Shown here in pieces: positions 2,719 to 8,507 of a DNA stretch of 64,000 nt. Source of the stretch: Escherichia coli. Its GTDB lineage: Bacteria > Pseudomonadota > Gammaproteobacteria > Enterobacterales > Enterobacteriaceae. The DNA is taken from assembly GCF_044324875.1 (NCBI RefSeq), contig NZ_CP172185.1; one strand, given 5' to 3'. A program made the position numbers and the translations under genes. Under the pieces are notes generated by a model. It made no database searches and was not told the origin of the DNA. It saw only the letters and a program-made list of their open reading frames with translations. Position 1 is the first letter of the stretch, and each line of letters begins with the position of its first letter.

Positions 2719-4032
<1,314 letters not shown>

Positions 4033-4056
4033 GTCTGACTTTATCTGATTAAAAAA

Positions 4057-4082
4057 TGCCAGCCTTCGGGCTGGCATTTTTT
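4057..4082. terminator. Bidirectional rho-independent terminator between convergent eno and TPM gene
   Basis: TGCCAGCC-TTCG-GGCTGGCA hairpin flanked by A6 upstream and T6 downstream. Confidence 0.75.
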
Positions 4083-4091
4083 ATGGTTGAG

Positions 4092-4985
4092 TTACCAGCG
4101 ACCGGACGCGCCGCCACCGCCAGAAGAACCGCCCCCGCCGCTAAATCCGCCGCCACTTGAGCCGCCACCGGAAGAGGATGAAGAAGAACCTTTTCTTGAA
4201 GCTCTTTCTTTACTGAGTTTTTTGTATTTGGCGCGTAGCTTTTTATTAACGATAAGCCAAAAAATAACCAGTGGTACGATAGCAAAAGGCGTGAGCATAC
4301 CGCAGGCAACGATTAAATTCGTCCATGGTCCTGGCTCGGCAACATAGAGGAATACCATCCCATAAATTCCGCCAGTCAGTGCTATCCAGGGTAAATTCGA
4401 CGGATCGGTAAAAACAATAAAATATGAAAGTACCGCCAGCAATATAATTACAGCAAGCGATAATGGAATAGGGGGATTGATACTGTAATAATCCCCCCTG
4501 TCTTCCGGTAATTCACCATTCAACAGAAGCGCTCCGATATTTTCGCTTGCCAGTGTTAACCCACCCATCAAGTCATCACTTTTGAAGGCTGGGATTAATA
4601 TATTACGGATAATCTTCGCTGCTTGCAGATCGGTAACCACCCCTTCCAGCCCGTAGCCCACTTCTATACGGACAGCATGATCTTCCCAGGCAACCAGCAG
4701 TAAAATACCATCGTTTCGCTGCTTATCTCCCAGTTTCCAGCTATCAAAAACGCGTGTTGCATATTGTTCAATGGTATCGTCTCCGGTGGATGGCACTATT
4801 AATACGGCGACCTGGGCCCGTGTTTTTTGTGTGATATCCTGCAGCTGTTGTGTCAGTGATTGTTGTTCAGACGTGCTTAACGTACCAGTAATATCGGTCA
4901 CCTGTTGGCGCAGCTCCGGCACAGCAATTTGCTGGGCAAGCCCAGGAAGGCACCATAAAGTAAGTAGAAAAAAGATTAAGCGCAT
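4092..4985 (-). CDS. TPM-domain membrane protein (YgcG-like), paralog A
   Basis: 297 aa; signal peptide, TPM-type domain (VAVLIVPSTGDDTIEQYATRVFDSWKLGDK, ILLLVAWEDH), TM helices, Gly/Ser-rich C-terminal tail ending GGGGASGRW. Confidence 0.85.
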   Translation of the reverse strand: MRLIFFLLTLWCLPGLAQQIAVPELRQQVTDITGTLSTSEQQSLTQQLQDITQKTRAQVAVLIVPSTGDDTIEQYATRVFDSWKLGDKQRNDGILLLVAWEDHAVRIEVGYGLEGVVTDLQAAKIIRNILIPAFKSDDLMGGLTLASENIGALLLNGELPEDRGDYYSINPPIPLSLAVIILLAVLSYFIVFTDPSNLPWIALTGGIYGMVFLYVAEPGPWTNLIVACGMLTPFAIVPLVIFWLIVNKKLRAKYKKLSKERASRKGSSSSSSGGGSSGGGFSGGGGSSGGGGASGRW

Positions 4986-4990
4986 AATGA

Positions 4991-6139
4991 TTACCAGCGT
5001 CCGGATGAACCGCCGCCTCCTGAAGAACCACCACCACCGCGGAAAGAATTTCTCGACGAAGAGCGAGAATGAGCATTACGATTCCCCGTTTTCCTGTTGC
5101 TTTTTTCTCCTGACCCCAGTTTAAGATTGCCAGTAAATTTGGCCACAATGATCAGCAGAACTATGCCAGCAATGGTTATTGGGCCGATAAAATGATCAAT
5201 TAGCCCAATAATTGTTGAGATGAATGCAATATCTTTATTACTGGCGAACACCAGGCACCATCCCACAATAATTATCAGCATCACGACAAACAATGAATTT
5301 CGTCCTGATTCACGAACCTGCGGAGTCTTCTTTTGTTTTTTCACTTTAGTGTTTTTATTTTTGGGGGCCAGCATCATAGGAAATGCGCGGCACATATTAA
5401 AAACTACCGCGAGACGCTGCCAGCAGGTTGTTGCTAACAATAAACTAAAACAAACGACCGATACCCGCCGAATGATGACATCGTCCTGAAAGGAGAAAAA
5501 CCAGACCATAGGGGTAATCATCGATATCATCCATATGCCACGCCCTGGGCGGCTGGCAAATCGCCAGAGGACAACGATGGCAACGATCATCAGCAGTGTC
5601 CAGGCAAGACAAGGCAGCGAACGTTGCGGATTAGCAAACAGATGATTGGCTAAAGCATCCAAAGGGCTAAGGTTCGCTTTGATATGGGTAAACTGTGCGA
5701 TGCTTTCAATTCCGCCCGTTAATCCAGCAAAGAGATTGTTTTTTTCGAATTCTGGCTGCATATGGTAACGAACAATTTGCGCAGCTTGTTCCGGCGGCAA
5801 CATCTGTTCCAGTCCATGTCCAATCTTCATTGACGCCAGCCCTTCCGGCCATACGACGAGAATTAAGATACCTTCGCCATATCGCTTCTCTCCAACGGGT
5901 TTCCAGTGATATACCCCGTATCTCTGCGAGGCTGCAAGTTTAATGTTTTTGCCCCCTGTGGTCGGCGTGACCAACACGGCCACCTGGAAGTGGTTTTGCT
6001 GCACGAGAGTCTGTAATTGTTGAGTTAAAGCAGTTTGTTCTTCTGTCGTTAATGTCCCGGTTAAGTCAGTTACTGAAGGCAATTGTTCAGCGAATACCTG
6101 AAAACCGCATAGCATCAGAAGTAAGAGAAAAATACGCAT
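4991..6139 (-). CDS. TPM-domain membrane protein, paralog B with extra internal hydrophobic insertion
   Basis: 382 aa; signal peptide, divergent TPM domain, additional TM segments, C-terminal tail ending GGGGSSGRW. Confidence 0.8.
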   Translation of the reverse strand: MRIFLLLLMLCGFQVFAEQLPSVTDLTGTLTTEEQTALTQQLQTLVQQNHFQVAVLVTPTTGGKNIKLAASQRYGVYHWKPVGEKRYGEGILILVVWPEGLASMKIGHGLEQMLPPEQAAQIVRYHMQPEFEKNNLFAGLTGGIESIAQFTHIKANLSPLDALANHLFANPQRSLPCLAWTLLMIVAIVVLWRFASRPGRGIWMISMITPMVWFFSFQDDVIIRRVSVVCFSLLLATTCWQRLAVVFNMCRAFPMMLAPKNKNTKVKKQKKTPQVRESGRNSLFVVMLIIIVGWCLVFASNKDIAFISTIIGLIDHFIGPITIAGIVLLIIVAKFTGNLKLGSGEKSNRKTGNRNAHSRSSSRNSFRGGGGSSGGGGSSGRW

Positions 6140-6153
6140 ATCAATTCCTTTTG

Positions 6154-7047
6154 TTACCAGCGCCCGGAAGCGCCACCGCCACCAGATGAACCGCCACCAC
6201 CGCTGAAATTGTCATTGTTGAATGAAGAGGATGACGATGATGAATAGTGGGAGGAAGAATTGCTTCTTGTATGGCGTGATGGCTGGTTGGCATCACGCAT
6301 CGAATCCCGAACCTTTTTGCCGAAGGGGGTAAAAGCGATGGCGACAGCCAGGAACGGTGTGGCGAAGCAGAGTAATGTTGCGAGTACTCCCCAGCTTCCG
6401 CTGAAGCCTGCTATAGGTAAAACAAAGGCCAGTACAATAGCTGCGAAGCAAATTACTCCCAGCGTTTTGATATATCCTCTGGCAGAAATAAACGTCAGTA
6501 CTATCGCCCAGACTAACAAAGCCCACCAACCGCTAAAAGGCAAAGGGTGATCGGTCGGTGTTATCGTTGCTAAATTATTCCCCGTCAGACGACTTTCAAT
6601 ATCGCTGATTCCCTTTTGCAAACCACCAGCCAGGTCCCCTTTTTTAAATGCCGGAATAATACTGTTGCGAATAATTTTCCCGGACTGTGCATCCGTAATA
6701 ATACCTTCCAGTCCGTAACCGATTTCAATACGCACGGTATGATCCTGCCAGGCGACTAACAGTAGAACGCCATCATCGTGGTCTTTATCACCCGGTTTCC
6801 AGCTATCGAATACCCGCGTTGCGTACTGCTCGATGGTTTCATCGCCTGTTGTTTCAACCACTAACACGACCAACTGTGCGTTGTTTTTTTGCGTCAGGGC
6901 TTTAATCTGGTTGGTCAGGGTGTTTACTTCACTGTTTGTCAATGTGCCGGTTAAGTCATTCACATACCTGGGTGATTCAGGTACTGGAATTTGTGTGGCA
7001 AACACAGATGAACAGAAGAAAGCCATAAGGAAGATAAAATTTCGCAT
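6154..7047 (-). CDS. TPM-domain membrane protein, paralog C
   Basis: ORF 6154..7077; start moved to internal ATG at 7047 (MRNFIFLMAFF signal peptide, GGGGAAG 4 nt upstream); tail ends GGGGASGRW. Confidence 0.8.
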   Translation of the reverse strand: MRNFIFLMAFFCSSVFATQIPVPESPRYVNDLTGTLTNSEVNTLTNQIKALTQKNNAQLVVLVVETTGDETIEQYATRVFDSWKPGDKDHDDGVLLLVAWQDHTVRIEIGYGLEGIITDAQSGKIIRNSIIPAFKKGDLAGGLQKGISDIESRLTGNNLATITPTDHPLPFSGWWALLVWAIVLTFISARGYIKTLGVICFAAIVLAFVLPIAGFSGSWGVLATLLCFATPFLAVAIAFTPFGKKVRDSMRDANQPSRHTRSNSSSHYSSSSSSSFNNDNFSGGGGSSGGGGASGRW

Positions 7048-7060
7048 ATAACTTCCCCGC

Positions 7061-7663
7061 TTAATGCGCATTAGCATTCTGGCTAAAATCTATTATTGGT
7101 GCTTTACTCACAGCTGCGACGTCATCCGGCAAATAATTTTTCTTCGGTGTGTAATCCATGACCTTTGCGGTTAATACAGCGGGGAATTTGCGGATAGTGA
7201 CATTATATTGTTCAATGGCTTTAATATATCTTCCTCGCGCAACGGCAATTCTATTTTCACTTCCTTCGAGCTGTACCATTAAATTTTGATAGAGTTCCTG
7301 AGCTTTTAAATCAGGGTAACGTTCACTAATTATCGTTAACTGACCGAGAGTGCGAGACACCTGCGCCTGGGCTTGTTGCCAGGCTTGTAATTTTTGCGCA
7401 TCTCCCGGAGCTTGCTGAAGATCGCTACTGGCGCGATTAGCCTGGCTACGTGCCAATGTTACGGCTTCCAGTACCTCTTGTTCATGGCTGGAATAACCTT
7501 TAATACTGGCGACAAGATTAGGAATAAGATCGGCGCGACGTTGATATTGATTCAATACCTCAGACCAGGAGGCGTTAACCTGCTCATCATAGGTTTGAAT
7601 ATCGTTATATCCACAGCCTGATAAATTGGCAATAAATATAATTACGATGAATATCCTGAGCAT
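7061..7663 (-). CDS. LemA-family lipoprotein
   Basis: 200 aa; lipobox LSGC near N-terminus; LemA-like coiled region; first gene of a co-directional lemA-TPM-TPM-TPM run. Confidence 0.8.
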   Translation of the reverse strand: MLRIFIVIIFIANLSGCGYNDIQTYDEQVNASWSEVLNQYQRRADLIPNLVASIKGYSSHEQEVLEAVTLARSQANRASSDLQQAPGDAQKLQAWQQAQAQVSRTLGQLTIISERYPDLKAQELYQNLMVQLEGSENRIAVARGRYIKAIEQYNVTIRKFPAVLTAKVMDYTPKKNYLPDDVAAVSKAPIIDFSQNANAH

Positions 7664-7835
7664 GTCTATGTCCCTTTTAATTAATTCCTTAAAACATAAT
7701 ACGCCGCTTCATTTTATTCTTTATGATCTCATCCACTTTTTGCCTTAAACCTGCCTGTAACAGAATGTTAATAAGACATGATTGTTGTGGCAGGATCTGC
7801 AATAATTAACAATTATCCACTTCACAGAGAATGCT

Positions 7836-8507
7836 ATGCAGTACCCGATTAACGAGATGTTCCAGACCCTGCAAGGTGAGGGTTACTTTACCGGCGTCCC
7901 CGCCATTTTTATTCGTTTACAGGGATGCCCGGTTGGCTGTGCCTGGTGCGACACCAAACACACCTGGGAAAAGCTTGAGGATCGGGAAGTCTCCCTTTTC
8001 AGCATTCTGGCGAAGACCAAAGAGAGTGATAAGTGGGGGGCGGCGAGCAGTGAAGACTTGCTGGCTGTCATTGGTCGCCAGGGATACACCGCGCGGCATG
8101 TGGTGATTACGGGTGGTGAGCCTTGCATTCATGATTTGCTGCCACTGACTGACCTGCTCGAAAAGAACGGTTTTAGCTGCCAGATCGAAACCAGTGGTAC
8201 TCATGAGGTACGCTGCACACCGAATACCTGGGTTACCGTATCGCCAAAGCTGAACATGCGCGGCGGCTATGAAGTGTTGTCACAGGCACTGGAGCGAGCC
8301 AACGAAATCAAGCATCCAGTGGGACGCGTACGTGATATTGAAGCACTGGATGAACTACTGGCAACACTGACCGATGATAAACCGCGAGTCATTGCACTGC
8401 AGCCGATTAGCCAAAAGGATGATGCTACTCGTTTATGTATCGATACGTGCATTGCGCGCAACTGGCGTTTGTCGATGCAAACGCATAAATATTTAAATAT
8501 TGCCTGA
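7836..8507 (+). CDS. queE: 7-carboxy-7-deazaguanine synthase (radical SAM)
   Basis: 223 aa; radical-SAM Cys motif CPVGCAWCDT; position next to CRISPR array as in E. coli ygcF. Confidence 0.92.
   Translation: MQYPINEMFQTLQGEGYFTGVPAIFIRLQGCPVGCAWCDTKHTWEKLEDREVSLFSILAKTKESDKWGAASSEDLLAVIGRQGYTARHVVITGGEPCIHDLLPLTDLLEKNGFSCQIETSGTHEVRCTPNTWVTVSPKLNMRGGYEVLSQALERANEIKHPVGRVRDIEALDELLATLTDDKPRVIALQPISQKDDATRLCIDTCIARNWRLSMQTHKYLNIA

Follow-up and report, generated by a model that had tools for sequence, protein, structure and literature searches.

A 64,000-nucleotide (nt) stretch of Escherichia coli DNA (contig NZ_CP172185.1; hereafter the window) has the order mazG-pyrG-eno, four minus-strand genes, then queE. 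The four genes are lemA and three tandem paralogs, TPM3, TPM2 and TPM1, each of which closes with a similar G-rich stretch encoding a Gly-rich peptide. The question raised by this locus is whether these terminal modules are DNA repeats through which paralogs are deleted or shuffled, as a first-pass annotation proposed, or whether their likeness follows from the protein they encode. We consider it highly probable that the modules are the coding sequence of a conserved C-terminal peptide of the YgcG/TPM family, and that the short exact runs within them occasionally mediate deletions and exchanges. The locus represents no new kind of system, and the recombination effect is real but ordinary. The genes and modules on which the argument turns are as follows.

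TPM1: 4092-4985, minus strand; 297 amino acids; W-type allele at the position of K-12 ygcG
TPM1 tail module: 4092-4145, minus strand; last 17 codons plus stop, encoding FSGGGGSSGGGGASGRW and the stop
TPM2: 4991-6139, minus strand; 382 amino acids; the paralog lost in natural tail-to-tail deletions
TPM2 tail module: 4991-5044, minus strand; encoding FRGGGGSSGGGGSSGRW and the stop
TPM3: 6154-7047, minus strand; 297 amino acids from MRNFIF, or 307 from an upstream ATG at 7077
TPM3 tail module: 6154-6207, minus strand; encoding FSGGGGSSGGGGASGRW and the stop

Tail modules as peptide and as DNA

The tails form the longest direct-repeat family in 4000-7100, with 55-nt copies at 4091-4145, 4990-5044 and 6153-6207. 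The spacings are 899 nt from TPM1 to TPM2 and 1163 nt from TPM2 to TPM3, in keeping with the 1-2 kb of the first-pass annotation, which the measurement refines to 0.9-1.2 kb. The three modules lie where that annotation placed them, the string it quoted, TTACCAGCG(A/T/C)CCGGA, is correct, and the translations agree with its GGGG..SGRW tail. The description of the modules as near-identical does not hold, as the last 54 nt agree pairwise at 78, 81 and 83% of positions (76-84% against the reference copy), and exact in-register runs among the window tails reach only 9, 9 and 10 nt. Outside the tails, exact words common to the paralogs are no longer than 12-13 nt; in TPM1 the Gly/Ser-rich block common to the tails runs on to ~4175. 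The differences between tails are synonymous except at two codons, and where a pair shares an amino acid it uses the same codon in only 5/14, 7/16 and 7/14 cases (36-50%).

The peptide was then compared with its DNA through a protein-only null, in which the 17-residue sequence was back-translated at random with the codon usage of neighbouring genes. This null gives 71-72% +/- 5% DNA identity with a mean longest run of 8-9 nt, and identity of at least 83% has a probability of ~0.014-0.025. Tail similarity is therefore mostly a by-product of protein constraint: it is far above chance for random DNA and only modestly above what the peptide and codon usage predict. Purifying selection on the Gly-rich peptide would maintain ~80% DNA identity over ~55 nt while leaving synonymous sites largely randomised. 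Shared ancestry or occasional conversion probably adds a little to the identity.

The peptide itself, F(S/R)GGGGSSGGGG(A/S)SGRW, is identical in TPM1 and TPM3 and differs at 2 residues in TPM2; 10 or 11 of its 17 codons are GGN. Among 142 representatives retrieved with TPM3 (clusters at <=50% identity), 130 end in Trp and 126 have a Gly-rich end, frequencies that are upper estimates. Gly at -12, -8 and -6 is invariant in 130/130 and nearly so at -13 and -7, giving a family consensus of [FYW]SGGGGx[SF]GGGG[AS]SGxW-COOH. The motif is present in ~100/120 close homologs, which are named 'YgcG family protein' in their sources, and an extension rich in glycine at the C terminus of YgcG-type TPM proteins has been noted (10.1101/2025.05.08.652833). 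Literature searches for LemA with the TPM domain, and for ygcG and yqcG in E. coli, returned no functional information on the tail or on the LemA/TPM cluster. In each paralog 7-9 Lys or Arg residues follow the last hydrophobic segment and precede the tail, which by the positive-inside rule is probably cytoplasmic.

All three window genes share the features of the YgcG/TPM family, namely a TPM domain, a signal peptide, C-terminal membrane segments and, after these, the GGGGxxGGGGASGxW end, which matches the YgcG-type pattern GGGGxxGGGG[AS]SGxW. TPM1 opens with a signal peptide, carries its TPM domain at residues 29-152 and continues with about three hydrophobic segments, followed by a basic stretch and the Gly-rich tail. 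The window departs from the usual YgcG/TPM arrangement in having three tandem paralogs behind lemA rather than one. Matches to Pfam TPM_phosphatase (PF04536) have E values of 7e-39, 5e-20 and 8e-41 for TPM1, TPM2 and TPM3, at 133, 72 and 140 bits against a gathering cutoff of 22.1. An NCBIfam search assigned the proteins to no specific family; they are not equivalogs of Psb32 (NF047379), for which the scores were 33.6 and 35.1 bits against a cutoff of 160, with no match for TPM2. Relatives in the PDB by sequence are 7tbr, 5anp and 2kw7. Protein identity is 43% between TPM1 and TPM3 and 34-35% between TPM2 and either; the three paralogs are old.

Natural deletions of TPM2

Four predicted tail-to-tail junctions were built as queries and searched in 5,426 complete E. 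coli genomes. The predicted TPM2/TPM3 junction was found in 10 genomes, each with one uninterrupted match. The TPM1/TPM2 recombinant and the reciprocal junction of a duplication (TPM3 tail to TPM2 body) each occurred in 0 genomes of this set, nor was a direct TPM1/TPM3 recombinant found in it. Apparent TPM1/TPM3 matches (337) were all of a form described below as form B, which has a 427-nt insert, and hence were not direct recombinants. The crossover cores are as follows.

Crossover core, TPM2 copy: 5025-5040; GAACCACCACCACCGC in the window
Crossover core, TPM3 copy: 6188-6203; GAACCGCCACCACCGC, 1,163 nt from the TPM2 copy, which is the size of the natural deletion

In O157:H7 and most strains the TPM2 core is GAACCGCCACCACCGC and thus agrees with the TPM3 copy at all 16 nt. 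One synonymous difference (A at 5030, G at 6193) shortens this run from 16 to 10 nt in the window.

Nine of the ten genomes are O157(:H7) and share an identical junction (FORC_044, 8368, AR-0428, 111, 112, 2009C-3554, 380-94, RV06 and NCCP 15739). Compared with the intact O157:H7 strain 611, FORC_044 lacks exactly 1,163 base pairs (bp), with no mismatch over ~2.5 kb of each flank, and the switch from TPM2 tail to TPM3 tail falls inside GAACCGCCACCACCGC, the 16-nt run common to both tails in O157. The tenth genome, 2017-02-2CC, has a background ~5% divergent from O157 and therefore carries an independent deletion. Its nearest intact relative, EC42405, is 98.9% identical and 1,163 bp longer, and places the switch at the same position, within GAACCGCCGCC; the 11-nt length of this core is an estimate, as EC42405 is the closest intact relative and not the actual parent. 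Judged by their backgrounds, the ten TPM2-deleted genomes represent two independent events. Both deletions are in frame and leave TPM3 with a hybrid tail made of the last 11 codons of TPM2. The size of the deletion equals the repeat spacing, one copy is kept and the crossover lies in the shared exact run, so that breakpoints in perfect repeats of 16 and 11 nt show the pattern of a short-homology deletion. At >=90% identity, TPM3-bearing genomes number 1,112 and TPM2-bearing genomes 1,104, an excess consistent with TPM2 losses. Such losses are rare, with 10 among ~1,110 carriers.

How might these deletions arise? RecA needs ~25 bp of uninterrupted identity, and spontaneous deletions in Salmonella mostly have endpoint homologies of 6-15 bp and are considered RecA-independent (PMC3386194, PMC2621351). 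Here the window offers exact runs of 9-10 nt; in most strains TPM2 and TPM3 have 16 nt in common, and in one sub-lineage TPM1 and TPM2 share 23 nt. All fall below ~25 bp, and classical homologous recombination is therefore unlikely. The proposal that the tails are recombination substrates thus stands with respect to the ten natural junctions and probably fails with respect to the classical homologous route. RecA-independent template switching, annealing or short-homology recombination would remove one repeat spacing in register and in frame, and a short-homology, RecA-independent route is most likely for the TPM2 deletions. That no reciprocal duplication was found is what an intramolecular or replicative deletion would give, although unstable duplications could leave the same picture. 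The further proposal that paralogs could be deleted is borne out for TPM2, by the 1,163-bp loss; it is limited by the rarity of that loss, by the lack of TPM1/TPM2 or direct TPM1/TPM3 recombinants and by the junctions of the main polymorphism, which lie elsewhere.

These deletions resemble the RecA-independent short-repeat deletions of lacI and Salmonella (PMC3386194) in that the junction lies in an 11-16-nt perfect repeat, one copy is kept and the length equals the spacing. They differ in that the TPM repeats are no chance matches but persist through selection on a protein motif; the same in-frame deletion therefore recurs and leaves a functional-looking hybrid gene. The locus is a clean case from nature in which a strongly conserved, low-complexity motif in proteins gives rise to short DNA repeats shared by old paralogs, and these repeats in turn set the sites of deletion and exchange. 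The recurrent TPM2/TPM3 junction could also be used as an O157:H7 lineage marker.

Exchange at the tails and competing explanations

The tails also bound exchanges between alleles of TPM1. The boundary between divergent TPM1 alleles, the W type and the K-12 ygcG type, lies at the inner edge of the tail. Two K-type strains, PCP07014 (locus L004) and VTB96929v, agree with the window from eno past the terminator and over the first 84 nt at the 3' end of TPM1. For PCP07014 there are 8 mismatches in 776 positions from eno to 4175; both strains are unalignable beyond. K-12 shows a boundary like that of the K-type strains, with similarity fading slightly earlier. Chimeric genes of the LF82 type place the other end of the K-type segment at a conserved IEQYATRVFD motif, as seen when the first TPM gene of LF82 (locus L006, 693-1565) was compared with window 4092-4985 and with K-12 ygcG (L001, 693-1565). 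The tail patch would thus serve as a crossover point when diverged TPM1 alleles recombine.

The same patch would also permit very short conversion tracts. Three clustered synonymous changes in the TPM2 tail of 17 genomes, EC42405 among them, make it match the TPM1 tail of its own genome exactly over 23 nt; TPM1-tail sequence has probably been copied into it through a very short conversion tract. Together with the allele mosaics bounded by the tail, this probable micro-conversion fits the earlier suggestion that paralogs could be shuffled. The TPM1 case is like other mosaic alleles made by recombination at conserved patches in that its K-type segment is bounded by the two best-conserved stretches, the tail and, in the LF82-type chimeras, IEQYATRVFD; it differs in its small scale, one gene. 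Short direct repeats that cause deletions and mosaic alleles joined at conserved patches are of a known kind. Particular to this locus are the repeats maintained by a motif, the recurrent in-frame deletion and a tail that bounds an allele mosaic. The case also accounts for part of the structural polymorphism between eno and queE in E. coli.

Tail length varies as well. The TPM1 tail of KK05-19 has a 12-nt in-frame insertion that adds SGGG (L007, ~745-760), and ahead of the TPM3 tail the number of consecutive Ser residues ranges from 7 to at least 11 (L002, L013, L014). This variation is in-frame slippage.

Three other accounts of the modules and their junctions were weighed. Recurrent gene conversion could keep the three tails alike in DNA independently of protein constraint, and such concerted evolution would explain why tail identity is somewhat above the protein-only expectation, why most strains have the 16-nt TPM2/TPM3 run and why 17 genomes have a TPM2 tail shifted to the TPM1 sequence at three clustered changes. 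However, codons for the same amino acid differ at 50-64% of positions, the TPM1 tail is nearly invariant across strains, and TPM2 and TPM3 retain their own diagnostic codons. With the exception of the 17-genome variant, the tails group by position, with their orthologs in other strains, and not by genome. We therefore regard concerted evolution as unlikely. A role for the modules as a DNA or RNA element (a recombinase site, a G-rich mRNA structure or a terminator component), with the peptide secondary, is much less probable still. The identical placement at gene ends, the G-rich coding strand and the recombination block bounded by 4092-4175 would suit such an element, but variation is concentrated at third codon positions with the reading frame always kept, and very diverse bacteria conserve the motif at the protein level. 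In addition, the G runs are mostly 2 long, the cluster holds no recombinase gene and the tails contain no Chi site. Chi was rejected as the cause of recombination, the only nearby site (6623-6630, minus strand) being inside TPM3; shuffled sequence gives an expectation of 1.9 Chi sites for the window, which has 18, an over-representation usual in E. coli.

It is barely credible, finally, that the TPM2 deletions are artefacts of assembly or annotation and that the tails never recombine. Short G+C-rich repeats are able to confuse assemblers, but nine O157 genomes from separate deposits with different strain names have the identical junction at 100%, the flanks are perfectly collinear, a second junction occurs in an unrelated background, and TPM3-bearing genomes exceed TPM2-bearing genomes by about the number of deletions (1,112 against 1,104).

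Several points weigh against the reading we prefer, that the modules encode a conserved peptide whose short exact runs occasionally recombine. The 78-83% identity of the tails is 1.3-2.3 standard deviations above the protein-only expectation, and some extra homogenisation or unsaturated ancestry therefore probably contributes; the 16-nt TPM2/TPM3 run has a probability of ~0.01 under the same model. The motif frequency is biased upwards, as the representatives (a set of 150) were ranked by a whole-protein score that includes the tail. While the anatomy of the locus, the family-wide motif, the natural deletion junctions and the allele boundary are observed directly, the cytoplasmic topology of the tail, the RecA independence of the deletions and the conversion are inferred. 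There are only two deletion events, and one of them is in O157:H7, where TPM3 was already truncated by a premature stop at codon 225 (ATLLCF to AT*LCF), before the last membrane segment and the tail. This stop is present alike in intact (strain 611, L012, 3605-4498) and TPM2-deleted O157 (L011, 2622-3515). The persistence of the deletions may reflect relaxed selection rather than a high recombination rate, a matter on which it bears that most E. coli live with one TPM gene.

A broader and more doubtful interpretation is that the tail block is a portable joint by which whole TPM bodies are swapped or dropped while the C-terminal motif is restored, the lemA-TPM cluster being a cassette system under diversifying or relaxing selection. 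The W and K alleles bounded by the tail, the recurrent in-frame loss of TPM2 and the tail-to-tail conversion tract fit this interpretation. If it were true, the TPM body, a periplasmic domain with its membrane segments, would be exchanged as a unit, and the stress-induced YqcG of K-12 would be a lemA relic from the same decay.

Copy-number forms and the surrounding locus

Across the eno-queE interval of the same 5,426 genomes, the survey of TPM copy number that the first-pass annotation had suggested revealed large strain-to-strain variation. There are three main forms: 72% of genomes have a single gene, 20% have three, and 6% show another arrangement. The K-12 form (ygcG and yqcG) is present in 3,929 genomes and lemA with three TPM genes in ~1,104-1,114. 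Of the latter, 782 carry the W-type TPM1 of the window and ~332 the LF82 type, whose first ~80 codons are W-type and the rest K-12-type. Form B, in 338 genomes, combines lemA with a single TPM3-like gene, 79.5% identical, and a hypothetical gene of 120 residues.

The major copy-number differences were not made by recombination between tails. A tail-to-tail deletion as the origin of the one-gene K-12 form was rejected, its right junction lying in lemA at codon ~22 (now yqcG). The body of K-12 ygcG is a different allele at the TPM1 position, with 45% protein identity to window TPM1, which further excludes a simple tail-to-tail origin. In form B, 427 nt of unrelated DNA separate the eno terminator from the stop codon of the TPM3-like gene. 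The tail of the form B strain JS01 was considered as a hybrid, since a 16-nt run matches the TPM1 tail; its last four codons are distinct and the case was judged too weak. The odd variants 14EC033, ECO2947, EcPF5 and CRE287 proved to be mediated by insertion sequences (IS) and not by tails.

Insertion sequences gather at the locus (L009, 433-1761; L008, 4343-5040; L010, 4559-5772). In several strains an IS4 lies between the eno terminator and TPM1, in 14EC033 an IS1-associated deletion takes the 5' part of TPM2, TPM3 and most of lemA, and in ECO2947 an IS3 is inside the TPM3-like gene. The 120-residue protein of form B is hydrophobic (WP_000034929.1; JS01, L002, 660-1086; L010, 3528-3890), has its own hairpin, replaces TPM1 and TPM2, and has no Pfam or NCBIfam family.

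RefSeq calls TPM3 a pseudogene 'missing C-terminus' in several strains (L006, 2956-3627; L007, 2989-3660; L009, 4156-4827; L013, 2880-3551), though the open reading frame (ORF) is intact through the Gly-rich tail. These calls, which expose a problem of annotation, are probably an artefact of alignment to a truncated reference protein.

The body of window TPM1 (4180-4985) is 100% identical to that of strain Ecol_316, but its identity to most other carriers is only ~94%. With no more than 32 genomes at >=99%, the window strain has a minority TPM1 allele.

The three TPM genes are convergent to eno, with lemA beyond them. The remaining features around the cluster are as follows.

eno: 2734-4032, plus strand
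Inverted repeat: 4050-4083; perfect 15-nt arms around a 4-nt loop, with flanking A and T runs; lies where eno and TPM1 converge
Antisense ORF: 4087-4347, plus strand; 86 amino acids from a TTG start, Pro-rich, the mirror of Gly/Ser codons
lemA: 7061-7663, minus strand; 200 amino acids; first gene of the lemA-TPM3-TPM2-TPM1 cluster
queE: 7836-8507

The inverted repeat is probably a bidirectional terminator; it was not picked up by a consensus scan, and in form B it marks the left edge of the variable region. The antisense ORF, which the first-pass annotation had dismissed as spurious, does exist. It extends over the 3' part of TPM1 and was called wholly inside that gene, has no Pfam match and is probably not a gene.

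The 46-residue YqcG of K-12, a 'cell envelope stress response protein' (L001, 1579-1719), looks like a lemA that has lost its interior. Alignment to the lemA 5' end (window 7631-7704) covers the first ~22 codons of yqcG together with the sequence upstream of them, and the yqcG stop is 14 nt from the start of the next gene, the same as from the lemA stop to the TPM3 start. The C-terminal NEYKITDAAVN of YqcG resembles KNYLPDDVAAVS of LemA (window 7061-7150), with weak support from the 3' DNA.

The lemA product belongs to the LemA family (PF04011, 164 bits against a gathering cutoff of 26.2). Residues 13-16 (window 7616-7627) form a lipobox-like LSGC after a hydrophobic N-terminus, and LemA may accordingly be a lipoprotein and not span the membrane.

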